In this document: positions 25,038-47,424 of the stretch, piece after piece
Layout of the letters: every line of letters starts with the position of its first letter
How positions within the stretch are numbered: the first letter of the stretch is position 1
Assembly: GCA_963760795.1 (NCBI GenBank)
Contig: CAVXEP010000001.1
Span: 168,818-232,817 of the forward strand
Length of the DNA stretch: 64,000 bases
Reading direction: 5' to 3'
DNA from: an uncultured delta proteobacterium
Lineage (GTDB): Bacteria > Desulfobacterota > Binatia > UBA9968
Translations under genes and position numbers: made by a program
The notes under the pieces: model-generated
What the model was told of the DNA's origin: nothing
What the model saw: the letters and a program-made list of their open reading frames with translations, nothing else
Databases searched by the model: none

Positions 25038-25213
25038 GAATTCAATTGTGAGTCGGCGTGGCGCCATGTTAGAAGCCGAAAGACTATTCCGGTGAGGAGA
25101 CTAAGCAAATGGTAAAGCGCGAAGTTGGGTTGGCGCCGCAGGTTGGACCCTGTGACGGCAAAGGCGATGCGCGGCGCGGATGGCAAATTACAGATTCCAG
25201 AATGGGCCATGGG

Positions 25214-26209
25214 ATGATCGCTAAAACCTTTGCTTTCGTTAGATCGCGCGCCAGAGCGTCGCGGCTTTGGCTGTTCGTTCTGTTAGCGCTAACGCCGTCG
25301 ACGACCATGGCGGCGCAGGCGGCGCGCGACTTGAAGGAGGTCAAAGTCGCTTATCCGCCGTCGATGGCGTCGGTTACTTTGATGACCGGGATCAAGCAGC
25401 GATTTTTCGACGAGCAAGGGCTACGGCCGGTTCTGCTCGTCATCTCCAGCGATCTCGCGTTAAAGAGCCAGGTAGTCGGGGAGATCGACTACACGCTGTT
25501 TGGCGGCGGCTCCGGCATGCTGGCGGCCGCCCAGGGATTGCCGATCAAGAATGTTCATCTGCCGCATAAGTTTGCCGACCTGACCCTAGTGGCGCGGCCG
25601 GAATTCAAGTCCGTCGCCCAGCTGCGCGGCAAGAAGATCGGCGTCAGCAGCTTCTCCGGCAGCGTTTATTCCTCCACTCGTGCCATGCTATCGGCGGGCG
25701 GTCTCGACCCCGACAAGGATGTGGTGATCATTCCAATGGGCCGGGAGCCGATCCGGCTGCAAGCGCTGTTTGCCGGCAGTATCGACGCGACGCCGCTGCC
25801 CGTGCCGCTGCACGCCATCGCGGAAGAGAAAGGCTACAGCCTGCTCGCCGACATCGAAGGTAAATTCGAAGTGCCGTTCAGCGGCATCACCGTGACGGAT
25901 AAGAAACTCAGGGAGAATGCCGATGAGGTGAAGCGATTTATTCGCGCGATGGTCAAGGCCGGCAGTTTTTTCCTGAGCCATCGCAGCGAGTCGGTGGCAC
26001 TCTACATGGACTGGTTGAAACTTTCGAAATCGATCGCTGAGAACGCTTACACGCGATCGATCAAGACCGTCAGCCCGGATGGCTTGGGCAAGGATAGCGC
26101 GATCAAGAATCAACTCGGGCTGATCAAGCAGACCACGGGGAAAGACGTGAAGCCGGAGGATGTCATCGATTTTACCCTGTTGCGGCAAGTGTTGGCGGAA
26201 GTGAAATGA
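25214..26209 (+). CDS. NitT/TauT family ABC substrate-binding protein
   Basis: FFDEQGL, QLRGKKIGVS, GLDPDKDV, DFTLLRQV; start uncertain. Confidence 0.85.
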   Translation: MIAKTFAFVRSRARASRLWLFVLLALTPSTTMAAQAARDLKEVKVAYPPSMASVTLMTGIKQRFFDEQGLRPVLLVISSDLALKSQVVGEIDYTLFGGGSGMLAAAQGLPIKNVHLPHKFADLTLVARPEFKSVAQLRGKKIGVSSFSGSVYSSTRAMLSAGGLDPDKDVVIIPMGREPIRLQALFAGSIDATPLPVPLHAIAEEKGYSLLADIEGKFEVPFSGITVTDKKLRENADEVKRFIRAMVKAGSFFLSHRSESVALYMDWLKLSKSIAENAYTRSIKTVSPDGLGKDSAIKNQLGLIKQTTGKDVKPEDVIDFTLLRQVLAEVK

Positions 26210-27321
26210 CGAAGCCGCAACCAAAAAGAAGAATGGCCGCAAAGAACGCAAAGGGCGCAAAAGAATCGGAGTCGATGACTGCGGACAACGAAAGAGCTTT
26301 GCGCACGAAAAAACTCCGGCTGCATAGCCGCGCGGTCATCTTACTCGCTGTGATTCTGTTCGCCTGGGCCGGCGTCGCTGCCGCGCAGACCGTCGTATTA
26401 AAACCGGAAAAAAACCGCCTGGAAGTCGCGATGGCGGGTACCGGTTCAACGAGCTTGCCCTTGTTGGTGACTTTGGAAAGCGGCTATTTCAGCAAGCGCG
26501 GTCTCACCGTCAATCTCAATCAAGTCAGCGCCAGTGTGTCGGTGCAGGGCGTGATCTCCGGCACCATCGACATTTACCAAGGCGGCGCGGCGGCGATCGC
26601 CGGCAATCTCGCCGGCGCGGATATCATTTACGTCGCCGCCGCCGTCGACAAAAGCTCGCTCAATCTGTTCGGTCAGAAGGGCATCACGACGTTTGAAGCG
26701 CTGCGTGGCAAGGCGATCTCGACCACGTCGCCGGGCGCATTCGGCGAAATCGCCGTCCGTGGCACGGCTCGCCGTATGGGTTTGGAGATGGGCAAGGATA
26801 TTAAGCTGCTCTACCATCGCACGCCGGCGGAAGCGCTCTCGACATTTCTCCTCGGCAACGCCGAAGGGCTGGTGATCACGCCGCCGCAGACCGATATGGC
26901 CAAGCAAAAGGGCTATCCAATGATCATCGATTATTTCAAAGAGGGCTTCAAAATCATCGGACCGGGAACTTCGCTGACGCGCGAGTTCGCGCAGAAATAT
27001 CCTAATACAATCAAGGCCTATTTGATGGCTTATCTCGACGGCCTGCGGCGGACCATCGACGACGAGGAGTACGCCAAGAAGATCTGCGCGAAATATACCA
27101 AGTTGACCGATGTAAATATTTTGACTGAAACCTATCAGCAGGGGTTACGCGTGTGGAACCGCGATATGACCGTCGACCCGGCGGCGATCCGTAACGTGCT
27201 CGACGACTCGTCCGATGGCAAAGCCAAGAACGCCGACCCGAAACGGTTTTACGACAACTCGCTGATTCAACAGGTCAACCGCGATCATGCCGCGAAGCTG
27301 TTTCCCGGGGAAATTCGCTAG
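26206..27321 (+). CDS. NitT/TauT family ABC substrate-binding protein
   Basis: GYFSKRGL, LRGKAI, ADPKRFYDNS; ATGA overlap with the previous gene. Confidence 0.85.
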   Translation: MTKPQPKRRMAAKNAKGAKESESMTADNERALRTKKLRLHSRAVILLAVILFAWAGVAAAQTVVLKPEKNRLEVAMAGTGSTSLPLLVTLESGYFSKRGLTVNLNQVSASVSVQGVISGTIDIYQGGAAAIAGNLAGADIIYVAAAVDKSSLNLFGQKGITTFEALRGKAISTTSPGAFGEIAVRGTARRMGLEMGKDIKLLYHRTPAEALSTFLLGNAEGLVITPPQTDMAKQKGYPMIIDYFKEGFKIIGPGTSLTREFAQKYPNTIKAYLMAYLDGLRRTIDDEEYAKKICAKYTKLTDVNILTETYQQGLRVWNRDMTVDPAAIRNVLDDSSDGKAKNADPKRFYDNSLIQQVNRDHAAKLFPGEIR

Positions 27322-27379
27322 AAGAAGTAAGGGTGAGGGGTAAGGAGTAGAAGTCAGGAGTCAGGAGGTTGAGCGGTTT

Positions 27380-28387
27380 ATGGTTATGAGATTTTCACTT
27401 CGGGGAATTGTCTGGGGGTCGGCGCTGCTGGCCTTTTTCATTGCCAATGCCGGTGCGCAGACGGGCAAGCCGGAAAAGAAGAGTCTCGATATCGCCGTGG
27501 CGGCGTTCGCCCATACGACGATGCCGCTTTTGATCGCCCATGAGGCGGGCTATTTCGCGAAATACGGGCTCAGTGTGAACATCAGCGCGGTCAGCGCAGC
27601 TGTCGCAGTGCAGGGGTTGATCTCCAGCAAGATCGATATTTACCAGGGCGGGTCGGCGGCGATGATGGCGACGCTCGCCGGTGCGGATATTATTTATGTC
27701 GCCGCCGGCGTCGATAAGAGTTCGCTCATGCTGTTCGGCCAGAAAGGCGTCACCAGCTTCGATGCCTTGCGCGGCAAGACGGTGGCGACGACCTCGCCCG
27801 GCGCTTTCGGCGAGATCGCCATGCGCGGGACGGCACGGAAGTACGGTATGGAGATTCCCAAGGACATCAAGTTGATGTTTCACGGTACGCCCGCGCAGGC
27901 GTATTCGACGTTTACGATGGGCAACTCTGACGCCATGATCAACACGCCGCCGCAATCCGACATTGCCAAGCAAAAGGGCTATCCGGTGATCGTCGATTTC
28001 TACAAGGAAGGATTGAAAATCATCGGCCCTGGCACCGCGGTGACGCGCGAGTTCGCGCAAAAAAATCCCAACACCATCAGAGCATTTTTGATGGGACTGT
28101 TGGACGGCGTTAAACGCGCCATCGACGACGAAGAGTATGCCAGCAAGCTCGAATCAAAATACTCCAAAGTCACCGACGCCAAAATCCTCGCTGATAATTA
28201 CCAACAAGGATTGCGTGTCTGGAACAAGGATCTGACCGTCGATCCGGCGGCGATCCGGGTCGTGCTCGACGATGCGCCGGATGGCCGAGGCAAGGGCGCC
28301 GATCCGAAACGCTTCTACGACAATTCGTTTATTCAGGCGGTGAACCGCGACTATGCGTCGAAGCTGTTTCCAGGGGAAGTTAAATAA
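27380..28387 (+). CDS. NitT/TauT family ABC substrate-binding protein (tandem paralog of the upstream gene)
   Basis: Shares long blocks with 26206..27321 (IDIYQGG, TTSPGAFGEIA, QQGLRVWN, DPKRFYDNS). Confidence 0.88.
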   Translation: MVMRFSLRGIVWGSALLAFFIANAGAQTGKPEKKSLDIAVAAFAHTTMPLLIAHEAGYFAKYGLSVNISAVSAAVAVQGLISSKIDIYQGGSAAMMATLAGADIIYVAAGVDKSSLMLFGQKGVTSFDALRGKTVATTSPGAFGEIAMRGTARKYGMEIPKDIKLMFHGTPAQAYSTFTMGNSDAMINTPPQSDIAKQKGYPVIVDFYKEGLKIIGPGTAVTREFAQKNPNTIRAFLMGLLDGVKRAIDDEEYASKLESKYSKVTDAKILADNYQQGLRVWNKDLTVDPAAIRVVLDDAPDGRGKGADPKRFYDNSFIQAVNRDYASKLFPGEVK

Positions 28388-28547
28388 GCGGCAAGGTCGG
28401 TGGTAATACTGGCAATCGTTGTCGCTAAATGCACTCGAAAAGGCAAAATCCCGCCACCAGCGTTGGAACAATGGACCGTTGATCGCTTAATATTTGCCAT
28501 GAGAGAAACGGTCACAGAGCCGGCTCTGTGAAGATGGAACGAGCGCG

Positions 28548-28919
28548 ATGACTCTTGAGAAGGCGGTAATATCGTATTCAGTGGTTCTTATTGTGCTGCT
28601 GGCACTAATGGTCTGGATGCTATTGCGGCACTGGGCGGTGAAGCGGCGCAAAGCCCAGGCGGCCAACCCAGGCGCCGGCGCGGTCGAGCAAACGGGATCG
28701 CGACCTATAGATTGGAGCGGCACGATAAGTAAATTGCGGCCGGACAATGTTCTCACCGGTGAGATGTGGGTGAAGGCGAGCATCGCAGCTTTCATTGCGC
28801 TTTGCGCCGGCACCATCGTTGTTGTGTTCGTTTTTCCGCTCGGCGCGGCGGCGGCGGCGATTGCCTCCTTTGCCGCGGTGGCCGTAATCGTCGGTCTATT
28901 TCTAATCCTGCTGGACTAA
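28548..28919 (+). CDS. Hypothetical membrane protein
   Basis: Three hydrophobic segments; fills the gap between flanking genes. Confidence 0.6.
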   Translation: MTLEKAVISYSVVLIVLLALMVWMLLRHWAVKRRKAQAANPGAGAVEQTGSRPIDWSGTISKLRPDNVLTGEMWVKASIAAFIALCAGTIVVVFVFPLGAAAAAIASFAAVAVIVGLFLILLD

Positions 28920-28938
28920 ACGTTATTTTAGCCGCCGA

Positions 28939-30114
28939 TTAATTTCGGGTTGGCAAGTAAGCTACCGAATCGATTTCCACGGAGCAGCGCGGCGATAGCT
29001 CGTCGACGACCACGGTTAAGCCAGCGGGCATGGTGCGCGAGCGGCTGTGGGCGGCGAAGAAGCTTTGATAGGCTTCGGCGAATTCAACGCGATTAGATCC
29101 TTCAACTAAATACACAGTGGTCTTGACGATATCGTTGAGAGTGCCGCCGGCGGCTTCGACGATGTCTTTGCTGTGGCGCAGTGTCGCTTCGGTTTGGCCG
29201 GCGAGGCTGCCTTCACATTCCACCACCCGGTCGAACGTTACGGCATCTTGGCCCGCGAGCAGTAGCCAATCGCCAACCCGCACCGATTGCGAGAAAGAAC
29301 CGGGCGCTAAGCGCACCTGGGGACTGGTGACTATCTTCTGCTCACCGCGGTAGGCGATGGCCATGGAGCGCAACAGGATGTTTTCGCCGAGGCTGCGGAT
29401 GTAGATGCCGGAGTTGGGCGGGTAAGCATCGTCGGTGAATACGCCTTGGTAAACTTTCTTGCGCGCCTCGCCGTAGCCGGGACGGTGCTCGGTGCCGGGC
29501 ATGAACATGAAGGTGCGGCAGAGATTGCCGAGGCCGAGTTTGTGTCTGGCGAGAATCTTGCTGATGCGCGTGAGGACTTCGGTGGTTTGGCTTTGAATTG
29601 ACGACGGCGCGGCGATACGTCCGTCGCCATTTGCGGCGTCGGTACCAGAGAGAAAAACCCAATCGTCGACGCGCACGCCGTGACAACCGGCGCCGATGGA
29701 CAGCGGCAGATCGGCGATGTGAAATGTTTCGCGATCTTCGCTGCTGGTGGCGATGGCATCCATACGCACTAGGCAGCCGCCGTCGAGGCCATTGACGCCG
29801 ACGAAATTTACAGCTGGCGCATCGTTGCCGAAGCGATCTCGCAGCGTCTTGGCCACGGCGGCAGCATCGTGGTAGTCGGAAAGATATACCGCGAGACTTA
29901 TCAGGTCAGCCGATGATTGGCCGCAGGCGCGCAGCCCCATGTCGAGATTGACAAGACATTGGCGTGCTTGTTGTTCAGCGGACAGCGCGGCTCCGACGGT
30001 GCCATCCGGGCCGCGCGCATCTTGGGCGAGGAATGTGAATTCACCTGCCTGGACGCCTTGGCTAAATAGATTGGTTTCGGAGAAAAGGGTTTTCTGCTCT
30101 ATGGTTTGTGGCAT
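28939..30114 (-). CDS. Rid (YjgF/YER057c/UK114) family protein with three tandem domains
   Basis: Three repeats starting FSQGVQAG..FLAQD, CHGVRVD..FLSGTD and FSQSVRVG..LAGQD; IVKTTVYL; VEIDSVA. Confidence 0.85.
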   Translation of the reverse strand: MPQTIEQKTLFSETNLFSQGVQAGEFTFLAQDARGPDGTVGAALSAEQQARQCLVNLDMGLRACGQSSADLISLAVYLSDYHDAAAVAKTLRDRFGNDAPAVNFVGVNGLDGGCLVRMDAIATSSEDRETFHIADLPLSIGAGCHGVRVDDWVFLSGTDAANGDGRIAAPSSIQSQTTEVLTRISKILARHKLGLGNLCRTFMFMPGTEHRPGYGEARKKVYQGVFTDDAYPPNSGIYIRSLGENILLRSMAIAYRGEQKIVTSPQVRLAPGSFSQSVRVGDWLLLAGQDAVTFDRVVECEGSLAGQTEATLRHSKDIVEAAGGTLNDIVKTTVYLVEGSNRVEFAEAYQSFFAAHSRSRTMPAGLTVVVDELSPRCSVEIDSVAYLPTRN

Positions 30115-30180
30115 GGGTTTTTGTCACCTGCCGACGGCAACCACGGGGACTGACTTACGAAATCGACGCGGTGGAACCTA

Positions 30181-30843
30181 TCAATGGCCGTGGTTTTCCC
30201 ACACGGACATGCCGGCCCGGCAGCACAGGGCGTCTTGTTCGGGACGGTTGGCGCCGGCGATGCCGATGGCGCCGACGATGGTGACGCCGTTGACGATCGG
30301 CAGGGCGCCGGCTACCGGTAAGATCTTGCCGCGATGCGAAATCATTAGGCTGCGCAGCCAGGGCTGGCGCGCTTGCGGCACCAATTCAGTAGTTGAGACG
30401 TGAAACGCGGCGGCGGTGTAGGCCTTGTTGAACGCCAGCTCGGCGCTTCTCGCTTCGGCCTTGTCCATCTTGCCGACCGCTATGGGTGCGCCGGCCTCAT
30501 CGACCACCACGGCGGTGATCGCGCTGCCGACCAGGCTGGCGTACTCTTGGGCGGACTCGATCATCGCCCAAGCGGTAGCGAAGGGCACCGGGCCGATGGC
30601 CGCTTTGTTCTGGCGGAAGAATGCCGCGTTAACTTCGATGGCGTAGGCGTATTGGGCGGGAATATCCACGTCTTTGAATATCGCGTCCACTGGGCAGACG
30701 ATCTCGCACTGCTCGCAGTCGATGCAGACTTCAGGGTCGACGTAGAATTGCGGCGCACCCGGTTTGGTGTGGATGCAAGCCACCGGACAAACTTCGACGC
30801 AGGCGCCGTCGTTGGTACAAAGTTCGGTGATGATGTAGGGCAC
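30181..30843 (-). CDS. Dicluster ferredoxin fused to a GlcG/HbpS (haem-binding) domain
   Basis: N-terminal CTNDGACVEVCP and CIDCEQCEIVCP; C-terminal AVVVDEAG, MD, AFNKAYTAA, GAIGIAG..EQD. Confidence 0.85.
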   Translation of the reverse strand: MPYIITELCTNDGACVEVCPVACIHTKPGAPQFYVDPEVCIDCEQCEIVCPVDAIFKDVDIPAQYAYAIEVNAAFFRQNKAAIGPVPFATAWAMIESAQEYASLVGSAITAVVVDEAGAPIAVGKMDKAEARSAELAFNKAYTAAAFHVSTTELVPQARQPWLRSLMISHRGKILPVAGALPIVNGVTIVGAIGIAGANRPEQDALCCRAGMSVWENHGH

Positions 30844-30863
30844 TGGGGTCCTCGCTTCGCTCG

Positions 30864-30944
30864 AAATATCAAATTACAGATTCCAAATTACATATTCCAG
30901 AGTTCAAATCGGCAATTTGAAATCTGAAATTTGTAATTTGTAAT
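30864..30944. repeat. AT-rich heptamer repeats arranged as an imperfect inverted repeat
   Basis: aaatatc aaattac agattcc aaattac atattcc ... aatttg aaatctg aaatttg taatttg taat in a GC-rich background. Confidence 0.7.
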
Positions 30945-30954
30945 CGCCGCAGCG

Positions 30955-31548
30955 CTAGCCGTCGGCGGCTAGCGGCAGATCGGTGTAGATCGCATCGGCA
31001 ACGTAAACCTCGGTGCCAAATTCGCGGCTGACCAGCCGGCCATTGCCATTCAATGTCCCCAAGCCTGCTTTGGCGGCCAGCGCGTCCACGTTGGCATCGC
31101 GCACTACTGTGGCGCGAAAGCCCAATTCGCGAATCCATGAACTCAAAACAAAAGTGATGAACAAGCCGTTTTGCACCGGCATTTGGCCGCCGATGCCTTT
31201 GGCTTGGCGCGGGTCGTAGTCGGCATGGACGGCGCACAGGATAGCAAACGGAAATTCGTTGCTTTCGCCATTGCCCGGTGGCGCGAGGGGGCGAGGGGAA
31301 CGATCGTCAAGCTTGGCGATGCCGATCAGCTCCGTGCCGAAGTACTTCGCCATGCCTTTGACATGGCTGGAGGTGATCTCGGGCGTGTGCAGCTCGGCTT
31401 TATTGGGGAAAATATTCCCCGCCGGTGCATTGCGGATCAGTTCCGTCACCGTATTAGTCAGATCGGCGGGCGGCGTATTGATGAAAAACTCCCAGAAGGG
31501 ATCGTCCTTATGAGAGTTCTTGCCGGGCCAGGGAAACTTCAAAGCCAC
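30955..31548 (-). CDS. Reductive dehalogenase-like domain protein lacking Fe-S motifs
   Basis: HVKGMAKYFGTELIGIAK, WIRELGFRA, AGLG..NGRLVSREFG, YTDLPLAAD align by eye with the neighbouring RdhA; ends before the Fe-S domain. Confidence 0.75.
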   Translation of the reverse strand: MALKFPWPGKNSHKDDPFWEFFINTPPADLTNTVTELIRNAPAGNIFPNKAELHTPEITSSHVKGMAKYFGTELIGIAKLDDRSPRPLAPPGNGESNEFPFAILCAVHADYDPRQAKGIGGQMPVQNGLFITFVLSSWIRELGFRATVVRDANVDALAAKAGLGTLNGNGRLVSREFGTEVYVADAIYTDLPLAADG

Positions 31549-32859
31549 TTACGGTTCCCGCTTGACGAATCGATTGGTGTTTTCCTTAAGCGGCGCATAA
31601 TAGCCGACGTTCCCGGCGACGGCTTTGGCGCCGGCTTTCTCATGCGACGCGTTGCAGCCGGCGACAGTGCAGGCATGCTCGCCGGGTTTGACGCCGGAGT
31701 CGTAGCCCAGCCAAGTCACCCGCGCGTTACGCACCAAACCCCAGAATCGGTCATCGACCCACTTGAGAAACTTCACCAGCACCGGCCGCAGCACGTAGGG
31801 GCAATAGTGCAATGAAGACGTCGCCATGTTGTGCCACCATGTTTTCGGTTTGGTGTATGGGCAGACCGTGGCGCAGGTCAGACAGCTGCCCCAGTGATCG
31901 TGCACATAGGGGCGCAGCTTGTAGCAGGTGAGCCAATTGATCTTGTATTTCTCGACGCCGTTGTGGACGACCTTGTCGCCGACGGGGATGCTATTGGTCG
32001 GGCAGGTGTTGGCGCACTTGCGGCAGACTTTGCAGAAATCGTCGACGCCGATGTCGATTGGCTCATCACCCACCAGCGGCAGATCGGTCATGATCGGGTC
32101 GGGCATATGCACGCGGGCGCCGTATTCCTTGCTGATGACCAGCCCATTGCGGCCCAACTCGCCGACCCCGGAGGCCACGCCCACCGCTTGGGGCACGGCC
32201 ACGCCGCGTAGCGCCGTGTAACCGAGTTCTTTGATGTAACCTTCGAGGGCTTTCAGGATCATGTTGCCCTTGATTTGCGAGATGTGATAGGCGGCGTCGC
32301 CGATCAGATGGCGGTGCGCTTGCAGTTTGTTGTAGTCCCACGCGGTGGTCGCCATGATGATGTAGGGAAATTTGCGCGCCATTTGCTCCGGCGTGTGGGC
32401 TGCGTATTCGTCCTTGGCAGTGCCGTCTTGGACATAGCGGCCGCCGCCGGCAGCATAAAGAAAATTTGGATGGGCCTTGGCGATGCGGACGATATCCGCG
32501 CCCATGTAGTGCGCCACCGCTTTGATATGGCGCGCCATCGCGGCGGGGTCGTTCACCGGAACTTTCTGCGGATTGATTTTGCCCTTGGCCGCCTGGTTGA
32601 CCACCGTGCTCAAAAAATGTCTGCGGTCGGCGAAATGGTTTGGCGCCGATACCCTGGTCAGTGGATCTTTGGATACCGTGTTGTGGTACCAATTGAACAA
32701 CGGCTTACCCAGTTCGCCGCGCTGGTTTTTCGGGTGCGGCGATTGATTCATGTCGACGTTTTCAAACTTGCCGACGATGCGCACGGTGCGGCCGAGATAG
32801 GGCGTCGGGAACTCGGCGCTGGCGTTGGTGTTTGGGTTTGGAGTTTCAACTTTGGACAT
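31549..32859 (-). CDS. Reductive dehalogenase-like cobalamin/2x[4Fe-4S] protein without a Tat leader
   Basis: HIKAVAHYMGADIV, YIKELGY, GVGELGRNG, TDLPL..DEPID, FCKVCRKCANTCP and C..CLTCATVCPY. Confidence 0.85.
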   Translation of the reverse strand: MSKVETPNPNTNASAEFPTPYLGRTVRIVGKFENVDMNQSPHPKNQRGELGKPLFNWYHNTVSKDPLTRVSAPNHFADRRHFLSTVVNQAAKGKINPQKVPVNDPAAMARHIKAVAHYMGADIVRIAKAHPNFLYAAGGGRYVQDGTAKDEYAAHTPEQMARKFPYIIMATTAWDYNKLQAHRHLIGDAAYHISQIKGNMILKALEGYIKELGYTALRGVAVPQAVGVASGVGELGRNGLVISKEYGARVHMPDPIMTDLPLVGDEPIDIGVDDFCKVCRKCANTCPTNSIPVGDKVVHNGVEKYKINWLTCYKLRPYVHDHWGSCLTCATVCPYTKPKTWWHNMATSSLHYCPYVLRPVLVKFLKWVDDRFWGLVRNARVTWLGYDSGVKPGEHACTVAGCNASHEKAGAKAVAGNVGYYAPLKENTNRFVKREP

Positions 32860-32904
32860 TGTTTGCCCTCCGGTTAAATTAGACAGAGAAGAGAGACTAG
32901 TTTT

Positions 32905-33306
32905 TTAGCCCTGATAAGCCGCCAGCGCCACTTCAGCGCATTTTTGATCTTGATCGTCGGTGCCGCCCGAGACTGCGATGGCGCCGACGACGTTGCCGCC
33001 TTCCACCACCGGTATGGCGCCGCCACCCGGCATTACTTTGCCACTGCTCGATACCACCAGACTTTGAAACCAGGCCTGGTTCGCCACGCCGGCCAAGTCT
33101 TTGGTCTGCTGCTGGAAGCTAGCCGCAGTGTAACCTTTGTTGAGGGCGATCTCTACCGTGATCGGCCGCGCTTTGTCCATGCGCCCGAGCGCGATCATGC
33201 GCCCACTCTGGTCGACCACCACCGCCGTTACAGCAATGTCCAGTTGCGCCGCTTGGGTATGCGCGTTGCGCACCATCTGAATCGCTTTTTCTCCAGGTAT
33301 AGCCAT
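32905..33306 (-). CDS. GlcG/HbpS family haem-binding protein
   Basis: AVVVDQSG, RMD, ALNKGYTAA, GGAIPV..G.VVGAIAVSGG..DQD. Confidence 0.88.
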   Translation of the reverse strand: MAIPGEKAIQMVRNAHTQAAQLDIAVTAVVVDQSGRMIALGRMDKARPITVEIALNKGYTAASFQQQTKDLAGVANQAWFQSLVVSSSGKVMPGGGAIPVVEGGNVVGAIAVSGGTDDQDQKCAEVALAAYQG

Positions 33307-33345
33307 AGTTGCCGGGGAACCTCCTCTTGCTGTGCTGTTACGGCT

Positions 33346-33376
33346 ACTTTAACAGGGAATGGGTATGGACAGTCAA
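33346..33376 (-). promoter_or_regulatory. Possible sigma70 promoter for the GlcG-RdhA operon
   Basis: Minus strand TTGACT-N19-TAAAGT with extended -10 TG, upstream of a GAGGAGG SD; spacer is long. Confidence 0.35.
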
Positions 33377-33426
33377 GCGGAAATTGATACCGGCAATGGT
33401 CCACTCTGGTTCAACGAATCGTCAAT

Positions 33427-33457
33427 GTAGGGGCGACCACAGGGGGGTCGCCCCTAC
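33427..33457. repeat. GTAG-type REP hairpin (relatives at 41153-41176, 44451-44475, 44556-44580, 54235-54257)
   Basis: GTAGGGGCGACC-N7-GGTCGCCCCTAC. Confidence 0.8.
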
Positions 33458-33648
33458 GGGATTGGTGGTTCGCGCGCCGGGAATCTCAATCGCCTTCCTC
33501 CGAGTTGCGCAAATGAATCGATCTAGTTTAAGCTCAGCAGCGGTGGACGCCCCGAAATATTTGATAGGTAAGCTCGACGGCCAGGCGGCGATCGTAACCG
33601 GCGGTACGCACGCTGGTTATCGTCCCGTCAAACCTTGGAGATAATCAT

Positions 33649-34725
33649 ATGCTGACCATCGACGCCGACGCTCACGTCATGGAAGGTCCGCGGACTTGGG
33701 AATATTGCGACCCATCGGAGCGCAAGTTCATGCCGGTGTTAGTCGATCCTGGCGCCGGCTCCGACCGGCAGTTTTGGCTGGTCGATGGCAAGATCCGCGG
33801 CCATGTGCGCCATGTGATCAAGTCGAAAGATTTTCATGCCCTCGCCGAAGCCAGTGGCCGCGACATGGTGGTGCCGCCGGAAGCGCAGCACCTCGAAGAT
33901 GTCCAGGCGCGCGTTCGCCACATGGACGAGATGGGCATCGATATTCAGGTGATGTATCCGACTATCTTCATCCAGCAGGTCACCGACAAACCCGAGTTCG
34001 AAGTGCCGATCTGCAAAGCCTACAACCGCTGGATGGCCGATGTCTGGAAACAGGGTAACGGCCGGCTGCGCTGGGTCTGCGTGCTGCCGCTGCTGAGCCT
34101 GCAAGATTCCATCGACATGCTGCCATGGTGCAAGGAAAACGGCGCGGTGGCGGTGTTGATGCGGCCCTTCGAAGGCGATCGCTTGATCCAGGATCCTTAT
34201 TTCTATCCGCTCTATGAAGCGATGAGCAAACATGATCTGCCCGTGGGGATGCATATCGGCAACGGCAATCCTGGGTGTTTGGACATCACGCGTCAGCGCG
34301 TCGGCTATGGCGCCGGCTTCTGGAGCATGTCAGCTAACACCGCCGGCGCCTGCCACGCGGTGATTACCAGCAAGCTGCCGGAAGTTTTTCCCAAGCTGCG
34401 CTTCGGTTTCATCGAAGCCTCGGCGCAGTGGATTCCCTGGGTCTTCAAAGACATCAAGCGGCGCGCCGAAGGGCGCAAGCTGCCGGATAATTTTTTCGAC
34501 ACCTACCGTCTCTACGTGTCTTGCTATAGCAGCACCGACGACATCGAATATATCGCGCAGTATTCCACCGAAAATACCCTGATGACCGGCACCGACTACG
34601 GCCATGTCGACATGTCCGTCGAGATCGACGCGCTACGGACGCTGGAAAAGAACGGCAAAGTGCGGCCCGAGCTGGCGCGGAAGATTTTGCACGACAATCC
34701 AGCGCGGTTTTACGGGATTCAATAA
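33649..34725 (+). CDS. Amidohydrolase 2 family protein (decarboxylase/hydratase-like)
   Basis: IDADAHVME, MDEMGID, AYNRW, GMHIG, GTDYGH, DNPARFY. Confidence 0.9.
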   Translation: MLTIDADAHVMEGPRTWEYCDPSERKFMPVLVDPGAGSDRQFWLVDGKIRGHVRHVIKSKDFHALAEASGRDMVVPPEAQHLEDVQARVRHMDEMGIDIQVMYPTIFIQQVTDKPEFEVPICKAYNRWMADVWKQGNGRLRWVCVLPLLSLQDSIDMLPWCKENGAVAVLMRPFEGDRLIQDPYFYPLYEAMSKHDLPVGMHIGNGNPGCLDITRQRVGYGAGFWSMSANTAGACHAVITSKLPEVFPKLRFGFIEASAQWIPWVFKDIKRRAEGRKLPDNFFDTYRLYVSCYSSTDDIEYIAQYSTENTLMTGTDYGHVDMSVEIDALRTLEKNGKVRPELARKILHDNPARFYGIQ

Positions 34726-34729
34726 TACC

Positions 34730-34765
34730 GTTCAAATCGTTCAAGCGGTTCAAAATGTTCAAACC
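34730..34765. repeat. 9-bp-period tandem repeat (GTTCAANNN)x4
   Basis: gttcaaatc gttcaagcg gttcaaaat gttcaaacc after the stop codon; same style as 1849-1884. Confidence 0.75.
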
Positions 34766-34787
34766 GTCAGAATCGGAGCTCGAGAAA

Positions 34788-35777
34788 ATGCGGAGAGCTG
34801 TGATTCGTTTCGCTGCATTGTTCGTTTTCACCACAGTATTTGTCGAAACGAATGCGTTTGCCCAGCTCACCAGGCTCAACGTCGGTTATGTCGGCATTAC
34901 GTCGGATAACGCGGCGGCGTTCATTGCGCGCGACACCGGCATTTATGCGCGCAACGGGCTGGACGTGCAGCTGATCTACATGAACAGCGGCAGCACGGCG
35001 GTGGCGGCTTTGATCAGTGGCGACACCCCGATCACGCAGACCGCCGGGCCGGGCGTTATCAACGCGACGATGAACGGTTCGGACACCGTGATGATCGCCG
35101 GTGGCAACGTGACATTGGATTACTGGATGCTCAGCCGGCCGGAGATCAAGACTGCGGAGCAGTTGAAGGGCGGCGCGGTGGCGATCAGCCGCTTCGGCTC
35201 GGCTTCCGACTTCATCGTGCGCTACGCTTTGCAGCGGCTTGGCTTAACTCCGGTGAAGGATGTGGCGATACTGCAAGTCGGATCGCTCACCGAACGCCTT
35301 GCGGCGATGGAAACCAAACGCGTGCAGGCGACGGTCTTAGCGCCGCCGGCGATGTATCAAGCGCAGATGCGCGGCTTCAACATGCTTGCGGACATCTCTG
35401 CGCTCGGTTTGCCGTATCAGGCCACCGGCGTAGCGACGACGCGAAAATTCATTCGTGAACGGACCGACGTTGTCCGCCGCTACATCAAAGCCCATGTCGA
35501 GGCCGTGCACCGCTTCAAGACCGACCGCGAAACCTCGATGAAAGTACTGGCCAAGTCTCTAGCGATCTCCGACAAACAGTTGCTCGAAAGAACCTATGAC
35601 GGCGCCATCGCCGAGCATAAACTGCCGGCCAAGCAGTATCCGACCCTAGAGGGATTGAAAACGATCATGGCGAGCGACCCGAAAGCCAAGGGAGCGAAGG
35701 CCGAAGAGTTTGTCGATCTGCGATTCATCAAAGAGCTCGACGACAGCGGCTACTTCGACAAGCTGTATAAGAGATAA
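34788..35777 (+). CDS. NitT/TauT family ABC substrate-binding protein
   Basis: Signal peptide; GIYARNGLDVQL; FVDLRFIKELDDSGY. Confidence 0.88.
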   Translation: MRRAVIRFAALFVFTTVFVETNAFAQLTRLNVGYVGITSDNAAAFIARDTGIYARNGLDVQLIYMNSGSTAVAALISGDTPITQTAGPGVINATMNGSDTVMIAGGNVTLDYWMLSRPEIKTAEQLKGGAVAISRFGSASDFIVRYALQRLGLTPVKDVAILQVGSLTERLAAMETKRVQATVLAPPAMYQAQMRGFNMLADISALGLPYQATGVATTRKFIRERTDVVRRYIKAHVEAVHRFKTDRETSMKVLAKSLAISDKQLLERTYDGAIAEHKLPAKQYPTLEGLKTIMASDPKAKGAKAEEFVDLRFIKELDDSGYFDKLYKR

Positions 35778-37606: not shown

Positions 37607-38578
37607 CTATTTTGCTCCCAGCTTCTTAAAGAACCCATCTTTCTCCAGTTCCGCGACGAATCTCATGTCGACAAAATCATCCGGCTTGGCTTGGCGCGCT
37701 TTAGGATCGCTTACTGCTAGCTCGGCGAGGATTGTTTCGATGCCGCGGCGACTCGTGTAGGGGACCGATTCGATCAACTCGCGATATTCTTTGTGGGTTT
37801 CTTCGAGAATCTCCAGGTCGGTGACGCGGGTGTATTTTTGCAATGCTTTTAGCGCGATCGGCTTGTTGGATTTGAAAAGATGCACGGCTTCGGCGTAGGC
37901 GCGCATGAAGCGGCGGACGATTTCCGGATTGCTGCGAATGTAGGCGCGGGTCGCGCCGACGGCGATGGAAACATACTCCGGGCCGTCTTTCGCCGGGGTC
38001 GCGAGGTCGACCAGGCCGGCCTTGCGCCCCCGAATGGTCGTTGGCGACGACAGCGGGCCGGCGTCGATCCTGCCGGCGGCGAGGGCGATCAAGATGTTCG
38101 GCACTTCACCCAAAGGAACTATCTCGTAGTCGCCCGGTTTGAGCCCGGCCTGGTTGAGCACGTAGAGCGTGACGGTGTGGGTCGATGAGCCGACGCGAGT
38201 GACGCCGATGCGTTTGCCGCGCAAATCGCTGACGCGCTTGAACTCCGGGCGCGCCATGAAAGTGAAGGGAAAGCGATTGGTCACGCCGGCGATGAGCACC
38301 ACATCGGAACCGGTTAGGTTGGACTGAATCGTGTTGCGCCCGTCGACATAGGAGATCGCGACCTCGCCGGCAAGAATGGTTTGAATGATCAGGGAGCTCG
38401 ACGGAATATGCAGCAGCTCGACGTCGAGGCCGTTTTTCTTGAAGAGTCCCTCGTCATGGGCGATCCAGATGCCGCTCTGGCCGGCGGCGATGGCCGACCA
38501 GTTGACGCGCACTTTCATTTGCGCCGAGGCCGGTTCAACGAAAGTCAGCAGGGCTAACACTGTAAATAACTATCTCAT
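37607..38578 (-). CDS. NitT/TauT family ABC substrate-binding protein; in-frame TAG at codon 3 after the SD-preceded ATG (alternative GTG start at 38560)
   Basis: GGAGG-N5-ATG AGA TAG; GLFKKNGLDVEL, DLRGKRIGV, FVDMRFVAELEKDGF. Confidence 0.8.
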
Positions 38579-39927: not shown

Positions 39928-40872
39928 ATGACTTTGGCTGCGATTCTACTCTTATGGTCATCGCCATGTTGGTTGTTCCATCCGTCGTCCTTTAGCCAGG
40001 GGTTGGAGAAGATTCGCATCGTCTATGCCAGCCGCGGGCTGCCGTTTTTCAGCGCGTTCGTCGCCAAGGAGATGAAGTTTTATCAAAAGCATGGGCTGGA
40101 GGTGGAGTTGATCCAGATGGCGCCGCGCATTGCCATAACGGCGTTGGCGACCAGCCAGGTCGACTATTCGCTCAACATCGGTTCGACCATGCGGGCGGCG
40201 ATGCGCGGCGCGCCGGTGCGGGCGGTGGCGTCGAGCACGGTGGCGCCATTTTTCGCCTTGGTCACCAAGGAGCCCAATATCGCCGCGCTCAAGGGTAAAA
40301 TCCTCGGCGTGTCGGACTTCGGCGGCACCAATTACCAAGTCACCCGGATGGTTTTGACACACTACGGTCTGGCGCCGCTCAAGGACGTCCAGATATTGTC
40401 CATCGGCGAAGAGAAGGTCATTCTCGACGCCTTGCTCTCGGGCCGAATCCACGGCGCCATGCTGTCGCCGCCCTGGCCCTTCGAAGCGGAGAAACATGGC
40501 TTCAAAATAATTCTCAAAGCATCGGACGTGGTGCAGTTTCCCTTCGCCGGCATCTGTACGTACACGGACAAGATCAAGAACAACCGCGAGCAGATCAAGA
40601 AAGTGATCCGCGCCGAGCTCGACGCGCTTCGCTTCATTCGTGAGCGGCGCCAGGAAAATATCGATATGATCGTCAAGCTGTTCAAGATGGACAAAGAAAT
40701 CGCGCAGAAGTCCTATGACTTCGCGTCGGTATTCTACAGCCGCGACGCGCGTATCCAACCCGAGTCGGCGCGCCGGCTGATCGCATTGGAAAAAGAAAAC
40801 GGCGACATCAAAGGCGATGTCGATGTCGGCCACATCGCCGATCTTTCGCTAGTCGAGGAAGTGCTGCGGTAG
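39928..40872 (+). CDS. NitT/TauT family ABC substrate-binding protein
   Basis: Signal peptide; FYQKHGLEVEL; ALKGKILGVS; DLSLVEEV. Confidence 0.88.
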   Translation: MTLAAILLLWSSPCWLFHPSSFSQGLEKIRIVYASRGLPFFSAFVAKEMKFYQKHGLEVELIQMAPRIAITALATSQVDYSLNIGSTMRAAMRGAPVRAVASSTVAPFFALVTKEPNIAALKGKILGVSDFGGTNYQVTRMVLTHYGLAPLKDVQILSIGEEKVILDALLSGRIHGAMLSPPWPFEAEKHGFKIILKASDVVQFPFAGICTYTDKIKNNREQIKKVIRAELDALRFIRERRQENIDMIVKLFKMDKEIAQKSYDFASVFYSRDARIQPESARRLIALEKENGDIKGDVDVGHIADLSLVEEVLR

Positions 40873-42582: not shown

Positions 42583-42925
42583 GGAAATTGTCCTCCAATG
42601 GTTTTACTTTTCGGCTCACTGCCGGGATCGATGGCGCAACTATATACAAACAACCCGCTGCGCGAAAGTATGAAGTTGAACAACGCTTAGCTCCAAACAG
42701 AGGGGTTGTTAATCTCCCGAGTCGAAGTCGTTTCCCCATCCGTCGGATTCCGGCCAGCAGTGCGGAAGAAGTATCAGACAAAGACTGGATGCCGGCCTGC
42801 GCCGGCATGACGGATCTTCACTTCGCCCAGTGGCGAGTGATATTCAGCCATGCTCGATTGAGACATTGAACGGTTGTGCCGCGGGATTGTCCGTTCTAAG
42901 ATCGCCACGGTTCGAAGGAGGCGGA

Positions 42926-44351
42926 ATGCATTATCGTGATCTGCGCGGATGGTTAGACGGTGTCGATTCGTTTGGCGAGTTGCGGGTGGTGGAGGGCGCC
43001 GACTGGAACCAGGAGATCGGCGCGGTCGCCGAAGTCGCGGCGCAGACCAATCCGCCGCCGGCGGTGTTGTTCGACAAGATCAAAGATTATCCGGCAGGGC
43101 GGCGCGTGCTCACCGGCGTGCACAATCCGACGCTCAAGCGCCAATGCTTGACCAACCATTTGCCGCTGGATTACACGCGCGATCAGTTCATCGACGCCTG
43201 GAAGAAGCGTCTCGACCATCCGACCTTGCTGCCGCCGCGGGTGGTCGATAGCGGGCCGGTGTTGGAAAATGTTTTTGAAGGCAAAGATATTGACCTGTTG
43301 TCCTTGCCGGTGCCGTGGTGGCATGAGGGCGACGGCGGCCGCTACATCGGCTCCATGGACACGACCATCAGCCGCGACCCCGATGAAGGCTGGATCAACG
43401 TCGGCTGTTACCGCGTCATGGTGCACGATAAAGATACGCTGGCGCTCTACATCTCGCCGGGCCATCACGGCCATATTCACCGGCAAAAATATTTCGACAA
43501 GGGCCAGCCGTTTCCGGTGGCGATCAGTTTCGGTCCCGATCCGCTGCTGTGGTTTTTCGGCCAGATGGAAATCCCGGCGGGCGAGTCGGAGTACGACTAC
43601 GCCGGCGGCGTGCGCGGCGAGCCCTATGAAGTGATCCTGGGCAAACACACCGGCCTGCCGATTCCCGCCTATTCGGAAATCGTCATCGAGGGCGAAGTGT
43701 TGCCCGGCACGAGTATTCCCGAAGGACCGTTCGGCGAATTTACCGGTTACTACGCCGGCGGTCTGCGCTCCGAGCCGATGCTCAAAGTAAAGCGGCTCAT
43801 GTACCGCAACGATCCGATCATGACCGGCGCGCCGCCGTTCAAACCGGCGCCGGGGGCGGAAAATAATTTGATCCGCGCCGCTTATATCTGGAACTACCTC
43901 GACAAGGCCGGCGTGCCGGACGTGCGCAGCGTCGCCTATCATCAAACCCGCTTGCTGGTCGCTTTGTCGATCAAGCAACGCTATCCCGGCCATGCCCGCC
44001 AAGCGGCGTTGATCGCCTCGCAATGCCGCGCCGCGGCGCTGCTGACACGCTATGTCATGGTGGTCGACGAGGATATCGATATCTGGGACAGCAACGAACT
44101 CTTGTGGGCGCTATGCACGCGCACCGATCCGGCGAAAGACATCGACATCCTGCGCCGCTGCTGGAGCAATCCCATCGATCCGATCATCCCGCCGAGCGAG
44201 CGCGGCTTCCAGTCGCGCGGCATCATCGACGCCTGCCGGCCCTATGAATGGATCAACGAGTTTCCCCAAAGTCTCGGGCGCGAGCAAGGAGTTGAAAGAC
44301 AAAGTCACGAAGAAATTTGCCGCGAGTCTGGCGGGGAAGAAAGTGATTTAA
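42926..44351 (+). CDS. UbiD family prFMN-dependent (de)carboxylase, apparent +1 frameshift near 44265
   Basis: DGGRY, NVGCYR, EIVIEG, EGPFGEFTGYY, VDEDID, WALCTR. Confidence 0.9.
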
Positions 44352-44534
44352 CCACAAAGGGCACATAGATCACAAAATAGTGAATCGGAATCAGATGATT
44401 GACCGCAAAGTACGCAATGAACGCAAAAAAATTCCAAGAGGAAATCCGACGTAGGGGCGAATCATGATTCGCCCTGGGGGGTGGCAGTGGCGTGGCTCTC
44501 TGGTAACGACATTCGAATTGATGAGAACACATAC

Positions 44535-45545
44535 ATGATTATCGGCGACCGCCATGTAGGGGCGACCGGCGGGTCGCCCTTCCGATGGACAAAAGGCGCA
44601 GCGAAATTGCTGCTGCTGGCACTTCTGCTGGGGATCGCGCCCAAGGTCGGCGCTCAACCAGGAAAGCCGCTGGAGAAAGTCCGCCTCACGGTGCCGGCGA
44701 AGTCCCTGACCTTCGTGCCGTATTATTTCGGCAAGGCGCAGGGGATCTTCGCGCGGGAAGGGATCGACCTTGAGATCATCGTCATGCGCCCGCCTCTGGG
44801 CGTCACGGCGTTACTGGCGGGCGAGCTTGATTATTCCGCGGCCGGCGGCCTGTCGGTGCGCGCCGCGCTGAAGGGCGCGCCGTTGCGCACGATTACATTT
44901 ATTCAAACGCGGTTGAGTTTCAGCCTGATCGGCCAGCCAGGCATGGCTGCGGCGCGGATCAAGAACGTTTCGGTGAGCGGTATCGGTTCCCTCGCCCACT
45001 ACGCCGCGCAGGCGATGATGAAACGCTTGGGCAATGAGAAGGTCGCCTATGTTTCGACCAACACCACGGCCAACAGCTATACGGCGCTGCTCGGCAAAGC
45101 CACCGATGCGGTGATCCTGACGCCGCCGTATACTTCGATGGCGACGTTGGCGGGCTACGCCGATCTCGGCAACACCTACGATCTGCGTGACTTGCAGGGC
45201 GGATTGGTGGCGCGCTTGTCTTCCATTCACGAGCAGCGCGAGCGGGTCAAGGCGGTGATCCGCGCGACCTTGCGCAGCATGGAAGCGATCGTCAAAAACG
45301 ACAATGAAGTGGTGGCCTATTTGCAGAAAGATTTCGGCCTGGAGCCCAGGATCGCCGCGGATACCTCGAAGATCATCAAACAGCTAGTCAATGCCGACGG
45401 CGATCTCGAAGAGCCGGTGCTGAAATCGATCATCGATAAATTGCGCGCGGAATCCGGCATCGCCGCGGAGATTCCGTCGGAGCGGTTGGTGGATATGTCG
45501 CTGTTGCGCGAGGTTAGAGCCGAGTTAAAGAAACGTGCGCCGTAG
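44535..45545 (+). CDS. NitT/TauT family ABC substrate-binding protein
   Basis: GIFAREGIDLE; VDMSLLREV; start uncertain. Confidence 0.85.
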   Translation: MIIGDRHVGATGGSPFRWTKGAAKLLLLALLLGIAPKVGAQPGKPLEKVRLTVPAKSLTFVPYYFGKAQGIFAREGIDLEIIVMRPPLGVTALLAGELDYSAAGGLSVRAALKGAPLRTITFIQTRLSFSLIGQPGMAAARIKNVSVSGIGSLAHYAAQAMMKRLGNEKVAYVSTNTTANSYTALLGKATDAVILTPPYTSMATLAGYADLGNTYDLRDLQGGLVARLSSIHEQRERVKAVIRATLRSMEAIVKNDNEVVAYLQKDFGLEPRIAADTSKIIKQLVNADGDLEEPVLKSIIDKLRAESGIAAEIPSERLVDMSLLREVRAELKKRAP

Positions 45546-46624: not shown

Positions 46625-46701
46625 GCGGGTCGAGGATCGTCAAATGCTGGTCGAGGATGGAAGATTGAGGATGGAGGATCGAGGATCGCTTGGAGGATAA
46701 G

Positions 46702-47424
46702 ATGGCTGAAAACGTAAAAGCGCGTATCGGTTTCGTCAGCGGCGGGTCGAGCTCCATGCCGCACTACAATAGTTTCCTGCCCATCGTGCCAAAGGAGTTC
46801 GAGATCGACTTCCAGGGTCTCCAGCTTTACGGCAAGTCGCTGTACGAGATCTCCGACAAGAAGGAAGTCATTCTGCGGCGAGTGAAAGAGTTCATCGCCG
46901 AACGCAAATGGGACGGTCTGATTCTCACTGCCGCCCCGACGGAAGTTCTCAATCCGGGATTGTTCGATGATTTGAAAGCGGCCGTTTCGATCCCTTTCAC
47001 CACGGCGCTGAATGCTTGCGTCGCGGCGCTACGAGTTTACTCCGCGCCCAAAGTACTTCTGCTCACGCCCTTCGATGCAAAGTTGAATGACCTGATCGTC
47101 GCCCATCTCGCCAAAGCAGGCGTGACCGCGTTGTCACCCAATTCTTTCGACGAACTCGCCGTGCCCAAACGCATGACGCCGGACGAAGTCTTCGATCTCA
47201 CCAAGAAAAACTTGGCCGCCGTCGGCAAAGTCGACGCGATCTATTTTCAAGGCGCGGTGCTCGATCCGGTCAAGTGTCTTGAACGCATCGAGTCCGAGCT
47301 TAACGCCACCGTCATCGCCAGCAATCCGGCGATGTTTTGGTATGTGCTGTCGAAGTTAAAACTTTCATACCCGATGACTGGCTTTGGCCGGTTATTGCGC
47401 GAGTGGCCGGCGTTGAACGCGTGA
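46702..47424 (+). CDS. Maleate isomerase / arylmalonate decarboxylase / Asp-Glu racemase superfamily protein
   Basis: IPFTTA, LLLTPF, DAIYF, IESEL..VIASNPA.FW, GFGRLL. Confidence 0.75.
   Translation: MAENVKARIGFVSGGSSSMPHYNSFLPIVPKEFEIDFQGLQLYGKSLYEISDKKEVILRRVKEFIAERKWDGLILTAAPTEVLNPGLFDDLKAAVSIPFTTALNACVAALRVYSAPKVLLLTPFDAKLNDLIVAHLAKAGVTALSPNSFDELAVPKRMTPDEVFDLTKKNLAAVGKVDAIYFQGAVLDPVKCLERIESELNATVIASNPAMFWYVLSKLKLSYPMTGFGRLLREWPALNA

Follow-up and report, generated by a model that had tools for sequence, protein, structure and literature searches.

The window analysed here is a stretch of 64,000 nucleotides from an uncultured delta proteobacterium (assembly GCA_963760795.1, contig CAVXEP010000001.1, positions 168,818 to 232,817 of the forward strand), and our subject is a minus-strand gene within it that encodes a protein of 197 amino acids (aa), small197. 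The gene lies directly downstream of one for a 436-aa protein, RdhA436, that resembles the catalytic subunit (RdhA) of reductive dehalogenases (RDH). The features at the centre of the locus are as follows.

30955..31548, minus strand: small197 gene, 197 aa, a paralog of the RdhA core without Fe-S clusters; GTG start, from the list of open reading frames (ORFs) and homology to RdhA436.
31546..31551, minus strand: stop/start junction TAA/GTG, a translational coupling signal read from the sequence.
31549..32859, minus strand: RdhA436, a 436-aa cytoplasmic RdhA-like corrinoid/2x[4Fe-4S] protein and the proposed catalytic partner (TIGR02486, Fer4_7).

RdhA436 scored 156.7 bits against TIGR02486, slightly below the cut-off of 160.35, and carries a Fer4_7 dicluster domain at residues 276-335. 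Among PDB sequences it matched PceA (1.3e-26), NpRdhA (2.6e-25) and also QueG. It is without a twin-arginine signal, and no RdhB-like gene was found nearby among the ORFs of the window.

A first-pass annotation of this DNA had claimed that the 197-aa protein parallels the RdhA encoded upstream of it, and this is borne out by two kinds of comparison. BLASTP placed residues 11-196 of small197 on residues 60-265 of RdhA436 with 60/211 identities (28%) and an E value of 5e-21, while a profile-profile alignment of the two families (hhalign) gave a probability of 99.85% and an E value of 1.2e-30 over 189 columns, with residues 14-197 of the small protein on 63-270 of the RdhA. As far as sequence alignment can tell, this similarity is far beyond chance. 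The motif pairs that the annotation quoted (HVKGMAKYFG/HIKAVAHYMG, WIRELGF/YIKELGY and YTDLPLAAD/MTDLPLVGD) are all present in the alignment of small197 with RdhA436. It was also right that the protein ends cleanly after TDLPL, at the place where an Fe-S domain would begin: the C-terminus of small197 lies five residues past this motif, and the first CxxCxxCxxxCP of RdhA436 stands ten residues past its own TDLPL (C276). The junction between the genes reads ...ccg TAA GTG gct..., so the RdhA436 stop codon (31549-31551) abuts the GTG of small197 (31546-31548), and the proposal of a start directly after the RdhA stop, fitting translational coupling, holds as well.

Domain searches recognised small197 only as a distant member of the same group. 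It had no match in Pfam at E<=0.1, Fer4 included, and its score against NCBIfam TIGR02486 (the RDH model) was 46.6 bits (E 4.2e-12), below the curated cut-off of 160.35. A phmmer search of PDB sequences matched 8q4h_A at 3.3e-5, and there was no sequence match to NpRdhA at E<=1.

The small protein belongs to a large family that lacks Fe-S motifs. A search among candidates of 108-345 aa returned 1186 clusters (90% identity) at E<=1e-3, and the best 120 of these are all 187-233 aa long, 63-100% identical to small197 and aligned over at least 98% of the query. The CxxCxxCxxxCP motif occurs in 0/120 of them, and their median cysteine count is 1. When length was left unlimited, a search of 1.84 billion representatives (50% identity) gave 214 matches at E<=1e-3, the best 150 of which fall into the following length classes.

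180-245 aa: 43 of the best 150 of 214, Fe-S motif in 0.
246-299 aa: 7 of the best 150 of 214, Fe-S motif in 3.
300 aa or more: 26 of the best 150 of 214, Fe-S motif in 24.
Below 180 aa, presumably pieces from short contigs: 74 of the best 150 of 214, Fe-S motif in 0.

Short forms are found at identities as low as about 33% and end between a few and about 17 residues past a TDLPL-like motif, and full-length RdhAs enter the list of small197 matches only at E>1e-18. To these lengths we added pairwise dN/dS (the ratio of non-synonymous to synonymous substitution rates, Nei-Gojobori), calculated for the window and up to 16 related loci and given below as medians.

Small gene: median dN/dS 0.134 (134/136 pairs usable).
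RdhA436: median dN/dS 0.102 (120/120 pairs).
Stand-alone GlcG gene: median dN/dS 0.047 (116/120 pairs).
Ferredoxin-GlcG fusion gene (Fd::GlcG): median dN/dS 0.097 (91/91 pairs).
Rid gene: median dN/dS 0.185 (21/21 pairs).

The small gene is clearly under purifying selection, with non-synonymous change about 1.5x faster than in RdhA436. Its frame is intact in 17/18 of the loci that hold the whole gene; L017 is frameshifted, and L016 and L019 are partial. The annotation had described the protein as strongly diverged and not a fresh fragment, and both the selection and the conserved length and end point agree with that description; homologs that are normally full-length with Fe-S motifs, which would have spoken for a decayed copy, are not what the close family contains. 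Frameshifts interrupt the small gene as well as Fd::GlcG in L017 (5001-5590), and the RdhA gene of L009 and that of L015 are also broken. These three loci come from metagenome-assembled genomes (MAGs) of the MFD series, and the splits are probably sequencing indels and not decay. One family protein, P0147 (292 aa), has a small-family N-terminus that runs, past an apparent frameshift, into the start of a downstream ferredoxin; we regard it as a gene-calling or assembly chimera, and it likewise shows the gene order small gene, then ferredoxin.

An AlphaFold2 model of small197, built from a 38-row alignment, had a mean predicted local distance difference test (pLDDT) value of 87.8 and a predicted template modelling (pTM) score of 0.82, with values below 50 only at residues 1-4 and 90-94. 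Foldseek gave 43 PDB matches to this model (E<=1e-3), with those to RdhA and QueG at the top (E 5e-9 to 1e-3). With VIA-align, the top match was residues 39-220 of NpRdhA (Z 14.9-17.6, root-mean-square deviation 3.1-3.4 A, 161-164 residues aligned; best row Z 17.6, 3.1 A, 162 residues). The catalytic core lies at 345-575 of the 4RAS sequence, which makes this segment the N-terminal domain of NpRdhA. The other structures scored as follows against the small197 model.

PceA core: VIA Z about 13.
8Q4H: VIA Z 12.3.
QueG: VIA Z about 11-11.5.
CblD: VIA Z 7.4.
CblC: VIA Z 6.6.
Nitroreductases: VIA Z about 6.

The model thus has the predicted fold of the RdhA/QueG cobalamin-binding core, which is nitroreductase-like, and it resembles the vestigial N-terminal domain of NpRdhA in being, as modelled, a copy of the RdhA core without clusters. 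The superposition on that domain had been proposed as a check on the split-domain idea, and its outcome (Z 17.6, the best alignment of all) favours the likeness.

The portions of PMC10463259 that deal with the active site name Y426, K488 and R552 as the key residues of NpRdhA and describe a conserved Y-K/R dyad. When the families were mapped onto these columns by alignment, the RdhA436 family showed an invariant Y191, four residues from the NpRdhA Y426 column and next to a gap; an invariant H251 at the PceA R305 column, which adjoins that of NpRdhA K488; and an invariant R316 at the NpRdhA R552 column. By this mapping RdhA436 reads as a Tyr-His variant of the Y-K/R dyad, and its substrate may therefore differ from that of known dehalogenases. 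The small family has a near-invariant GIGG---Q where RdhA436 has GDAAYH, a three-residue deletion that, in the same mapping, removes the Tyr corresponding to Y191. Residue Y181 of small197 falls at the H251 (PceA R305) column, a position that varies across the small family. On alignment evidence small197 lacks three marks of a catalytic RDH subunit, namely the model score, the two [4Fe-4S] motifs and the Tyr-Lys/Arg dyad. As for the term 'catabolic dehalogenase' used in the first-pass annotation, the relationship of RdhA436 to the dehalogenases stands, but the activity is unproven, with a score just below the RDH cut-off and a His at the K/R position of the dyad.

The genes around the pair form a cassette on the minus strand, to which the following features belong.

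30181..30843, minus strand: 220-aa FdxA-like ferredoxin fused to an HbpS-like/GlcG (DUF336) domain, the proposed electron donor (Pfam Fer4 and HbpS-like, NCBIfam FdxA); this is Fd::GlcG.
32905..33306, minus strand: 133-aa stand-alone HbpS-like/GlcG (DUF336) protein, the first gene of the cassette (Pfam PF03928, 8.9e-28).
28939..30114, minus strand: 391-aa protein in which three Rid/YjgF (L-PSP) domains follow one another; its gene often closes the cassette (Pfam PF01042, 3 stretches).
30879..30945, minus strand: long A+T-rich intercistronic hairpin in the spacer between small197 and Fd::GlcG (minimum free energy -31.3 kcal/mol, z -6.1).

To follow this arrangement beyond the window we used 19 loci from species-representative genomes, each with a close relative of small197, which their submitters labelled as Binatia, 'delta proteobacterium', Thermodesulfobacteriota, Syntrophobacter, Acidiferrales and Chloroflexota MAGs. 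In 18/18 assessable loci (L019 begins inside the small gene) the gene immediately 5' of the small gene is an RdhA436 ortholog, 76-98% identical, and the stand-alone GlcG gene is found upstream of the RdhA in 16/16 assessable close loci. Fd::GlcG, which the annotation had correctly placed downstream of the small gene, follows it in 16/19 loci; L016 stops inside the small gene. The triple-Rid gene lies 3' of Fd::GlcG in seven related loci at 66-92% identity, with the copy in L007 cut by the contig end. The stop/start geometry is just as constant: TAA/GTG or TAG/GTG abut in seven cases including the window, and in twelve the RdhA stop and the small-gene start overlap by one base (TAGTG), so that the GTG touches or overlaps the RdhA stop in 19/19 close cases (the window and 18 related loci).

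A metagenome scan with the family proteins P0160 and P0173 reached a more distant branch of four loci, two of them long enough for context, while a scan seeded with P0130 found no relative. In one of the two, L063, a 453-aa RdhA that is 48% identical to RdhA436 and keeps the GDATYH and RVH motifs is followed by a small gene that starts with GTG and is about 34% identical to small197, and then by a 217-aa fusion of ferredoxin and HbpS-like domain, which overlaps the small gene (the small gene ends at 4657, Fd::GlcG starts at 4654). The GlcG gene upstream of the RdhA is absent there. L064 has the same gene order (RdhA, small gene, Fd::GlcG) and the same levels of identity to small197 and RdhA436, and in both (2/2) a two-nucleotide spacer separates the RdhA stop from the GTG of the small gene. 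As the triad of RdhA, small gene and Fd::GlcG is kept in L063 and L064, it must be old. RdhAs 38-40% identical to RdhA436 have no small gene beside them and are followed by a plain FdxA-like ferredoxin without a DUF336 fusion at two distinct loci (L056, and one region recorded as both L025 and L055; the genomes are one of the window's own family and one labelled Binatia). This suggests that RdhA and ferredoxin form the older module, which gained the small protein and DUF336 within the RdhA436 clade. Among 401 genomes of the phylum sampled evenly, 43 matched the family profile at E<=1e-15, and the short frame was found in the window's genome only, the rest being full-length RdhAs; so sparse a sample says nothing about how rare the small gene is in nature.

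We then predicted the complex of RdhA436 (30-row alignment) with small197 (38-row alignment). The score was 0.85 (runs of 0.85, 0.87 and 0.85), which the tool reports as 'supports binding', and the best of three controls reached 0.00. The mark for this score is reached by 116/157 solved complexes and by 2/215 mismatched pairs, a calibration that is rough here, where our own alignments were used. The runs share at least 84% of their contacts, with a partner pLDDT of at least 82 and 119-121 confident contacts. The predicted interface is reciprocal, with residues 66-119 and 193-212 (and 384-385) of RdhA436 facing residues 13-70 and 119-142 of small197, and by profile alignment both chains contribute corresponding elements to it, namely their N-terminal arms, first long helices and 'IRELGY' helices. 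Within small197 the 43 interface residues are more conserved than the rest (0.597 vs 0.511, one-sided Mann-Whitney p 0.023). Of the positions conserved at 80% or more in the small family, 13/35 lie in the interface; these include every one of the nine such positions in the N-terminal arm (D16, P17, W19, F22, D29, N32, A41, G44 and H54). An interface is therefore predicted where its absence would have counted against the heterodimer suggested in the first-pass annotation, and that suggestion gains support from the model with its clean controls, from the stop/start coupling at every locus and from the strict synteny.

Taken together, we believe that small197 probably serves a cytoplasmic RdhA-like reductase as a partner subunit without a catalytic role. 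Ribosomes that finish RdhA436 would re-initiate at the small197 GTG, and therefore both chains would be made together and in similar amounts. The small protein would be a catalytically dead, Fe-S-free paralog of the RdhA436 cobalamin-binding core that binds RdhA436 through a pseudo-two-fold surface, to which each chain contributes its N-terminal arm and its 'IRELGY' helix; this surface may be likened, by analogy, to that of the PceA homodimer and to the one between the vestigial domain and the rest of the chain within NpRdhA. In the working enzyme one active B12/2x[4Fe-4S] subunit would then be paired with one scaffold subunit as a heterodimer, and the 7Fe-type ferredoxin of Fd::GlcG would supply electrons to the two clusters of RdhA436. 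We infer both the scaffold role and the electron path, together with the loss of cobalamin binding and of catalysis in small197.

Several points weigh against this reading. Everything in it that goes beyond sequence rests on prediction, as the fold of small197 and its interface with RdhA436 are both modelled. Solved structures exist for PceA dimers and for the NpRdhA pseudo-dimer, so the high score of the complex may mirror likeness to them and not real binding; the comparison covered the heterodimer and three controls. The interface of RdhA436 shows no excess of conservation (0.847 vs 0.820, p 0.45), and the excess in small197 is modest. The small family also keeps the AGLG...GR...TDLPL motifs common to the cobalamin-binding cores of RdhA and QueG, and small197 may for this reason still bind cobalamin. 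Two loci, L001 and L004, have no Fd::GlcG despite about 5 kb of downstream sequence being present. Finally, contigs from RNA libraries bridge the RdhA/small junction in two studies (X16 record 11, 31425-31756, 0 differences; X19 record 26, 31385-31728, 7 differences), while the bins of the small gene spanning 31021-31230 had no cover in the four runs examined; such contigs prove neither transcription nor a single transcript, and the uncovered bins do not disprove it.

Other explanations of the small gene have to be set beside this one. That it is a decayed or truncated copy without function might be suggested by its missing Fe-S domain and catalytic Tyr and by its faster non-synonymous change relative to RdhA436, but a dN/dS of 0.134, a frame intact in 17/18 loci, a family of 1186 clusters and a length and end point kept down to about 33% identity leave this reading barely credible, and we rejected a pseudogene as effectively refuted by family size, length conservation and dN/dS. 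Less easily set aside, though still unlikely, is a cobalamin carrier or chaperone that hands B12 to RdhA436, possibly together with the two DUF336 proteins, and is not a permanent subunit. The fold is common to the B12-trafficking proteins CblC and CblD (Z 6.4-7.4), the AGLG/GR/TDLPL motifs of cobalamin-binding cores are retained, and the operon holds two HbpS-like/DUF336 domains. A DUF336 domain is also found fused to the PduO adenosyltransferase, where it binds corrinoids and haem. The CblC/CblD matches are weak, however, and within the range that the tool calls common, the top structural match is to an NpRdhA domain described as not binding cobalamin, and the tight coupling and large reciprocal interface (119-121 contacts) fit a stoichiometric subunit better than a carrier.

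The first-pass annotation had raised the alternative that the small protein borrows the Fe-S clusters of the ferredoxin encoded downstream, which would make it a second active site, split from its clusters, that binds cobalamin and receives electrons from Fd::GlcG in a two-piece reductase. The position of Fd::GlcG after the small gene in 16/19 loci and in L063 and L064 is in keeping with this, as is the overlap of the two genes in L063. Yet the dyad Tyr is deleted and the K/R/H position is variable, the ferredoxin is no RdhA-type cluster domain but a 7Fe one of the FdxA type, and in close loci a long hairpin and 95-135 nucleotides separate the small gene from Fd::GlcG. A ferredoxin also follows RdhAs that have no partner (two distinct loci), and L001 and L004 have the small gene without a ferredoxin. 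Since partner-less related RdhAs are followed by a ferredoxin too, it is more simply read as the RdhA's own donor, and the borrowing of clusters is disfavoured to the point of being very improbable. A regulatory pseudo-subunit that caps or inhibits RdhA436 or shields it from oxygen, and is not a scaffold required for activity, would use the same predicted interface, and regulation of an active enzyme by a pseudoenzyme paralog is common. An obligate partner is the better match to coupled synthesis at 1:1 and to co-occurrence without exception, and although nothing that we found separates the two, we think regulation a rather improbable role. A non-catalytic partner subunit stays our preferred account of small197.

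The closest known parallel is the vestigial domain of NpRdhA (PDB 4RAS, 6ZXU and 6ZY0), also present in BhbA and JtRdhA, which like small197 is a duplicated RdhA core without Fe-S clusters. The annotation had cited a duplicated, vestigial cobalamin-binding domain within the single chain of NpRdhA, and the structural account in PMC10463259 confirms it; that part of the paper describes the domain as unable to bind cobalamin, its position as packed against the active core and its interface as mimicking the monomer-monomer interface of the respiratory (PceA) dimer, which is why NpRdhA is monomeric. In enzymes of this type the vestigial domain is fused N-terminally in one chain, whereas small197 is a polypeptide of its own encoded downstream of the catalytic gene. 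RdhA436, unlike NpRdhA, is of the 'simplified cytosolic' type without a reductase domain, a type of about 395 aa described in a section of PMC12219181 as being without the vestigial domain. The PceA homodimer of Sulfurospirillum multivorans (PDB 4UQU; complex in 8Q4H) has the same core fold (Foldseek E 5e-9 to 3e-8), and in the predicted heterodimer RdhA436 and small197 meet through corresponding elements, in the manner of a homodimer. It differs in that here one protomer has lost its clusters and its catalytic Tyr, and in that there is neither a twin-arginine signal nor an RdhB gene nearby. MMACHC (CblC) and MMADHC (CblD; PDB 9MRS, 5CV0 and 3SC0) share the nitroreductase-like fold, and 9MRS, by its title, pairs a cofactor-binding member with a paralogous partner. 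The structural match to small197 is weak (Z 6.4-7.4), there is no sequence match, and these proteins function in trafficking, but the pair may serve as an analogy where a B12 protein is joined by a degenerate partner. Our literature search found only the fused vestigial domain, and neither a separately encoded one nor an RdhA with DUF336, GlcG or Binatia. As far as this search went, the design with a vestigial partner had been known only as one fused protein.

To address the origin of the small gene, we ran a quick IQ-TREE search on 67 rows and 188 columns with a midpoint root. The rows, picked from the matches of small197 and without NpRdhA, comprised the small family, the RdhA436 family, other RdhAs and the halves of two natural fusions. 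The small family was monophyletic (Shimodaira-Hasegawa-like approximate likelihood ratio test, SH-aLRT, 99) and sister to the RdhA436 clade (SH-aLRT 94, below the 95 mark). One of the fusions, P0194 (603 aa), has an RdhA-like N-domain without Fe-S motifs that ends in TTDLPL, followed by a full RdhA; its halves pair together in the tree (SH-aLRT 90), and the N-domain is only 26% identical to small197. The other, P0189 (685 aa), is a tandem of two full RdhA units with both Cys motifs in each, and its halves fall in one clade. Both resemble RdhA436 and small197 in joining two RdhA cores and differ from them in being separate duplications, with halves that do not group with the small family. Since they tie two RdhA cores together, they lend support to a two-core working unit. 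The simplest reading of the tree and alignments is that the ancestral RdhA436 gene was duplicated in tandem long ago and that the downstream copy lost its Fe-S part; on the same reading this event would be independent of the P0194 fusion and probably also of the NpRdhA type. Fission of an NpRdhA-like gene was considered and rejected on gene order and on this quick tree. The idea of a split NpRdhA-type gene, also raised in the annotation, is not supported, as RdhA436 still has both of its Fe-S motifs, the small gene comes after it and not before it, and the small family is sister to the RdhA436 clade.

Some features of the surroundings are worth recording. A spacer hairpin between the small gene and Fd::GlcG was found in 5/5 loci folded (the window, L003, L007, L010 and L012), with arms that differ in sequence, and a conserved CCGAGCGAAGCGAGGA box lies 3' of it, just before the start of Fd::GlcG. 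The hairpin may be an intercistronic stabiliser, a processing site or an attenuator that gives Fd::GlcG another dose. In the distant locus L063, where the small gene and Fd::GlcG overlap, it is absent. An Rfam search of 28000-35000 gave two sub-threshold matches of miRNA families on the hairpin, which we took as chance. The window's genome has a further RdhA-like open frame (contig C2:158404-158859, L022), only 311 aa long and 34% identical to residues 93-341 of RdhA436. Elsewhere in the window there are eight genes for NMT1/THI5-like solute-binding proteins (1946-2875, 25109-28384, 34755-35774, 37610-38560, 39928-40869 and 44481-45542), and beside them an amidohydrolase_2 gene (33649-34725, divergent from the cassette), a UbiD-family decarboxylase gene (42830-44365) and an arylmalonate-decarboxylase-like gene (46690-47421). 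This neighbourhood looks like one for the uptake and decarboxylation of aromatic or organic acids. Parts of the window were found, nearly identical, in DNA runs from soil, bog and mine drainage and in RNA-library runs from rhizosphere, soil and sediment (20 rows, 13 studies).

Cytoplasmic ('catabolic') reductive dehalogenases are attractive for bioremediation, as they are oxygen-tolerant and soluble, and to our knowledge only the fused type represented by NpRdhA, BhbA and JtRdhA has been characterised among them. Short cytosolic RdhAs are common in soil and sediment genomes. We propose, tentatively and at somewhat less than even confidence, that the RdhA436 clade represents a widespread B12/Fe-S reductase of soil bacteria that is an obligate heterodimer of a catalytic RdhA and a separately encoded pseudo-enzyme paralog. 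Under this proposal the vestigial partner would have an independent origin, distinct from P0194 and probably from the NpRdhA-type fusions, and the enzyme would work with DUF336 proteins and a 7Fe ferredoxin of its own, using a Tyr-His dyad on a substrate that is perhaps not an organohalide. If this clade supplies its vestigial domain in trans, expressing such RdhAs alone may fail, because the partner would be missing. It would also mean that surveys of RdhAs that filter by Fe-S motifs or by length overlook a conserved subunit. Lastly, if dead partners have indeed evolved repeatedly and independently, this would argue that a unit of two cores is a structural requirement of the RdhA fold.

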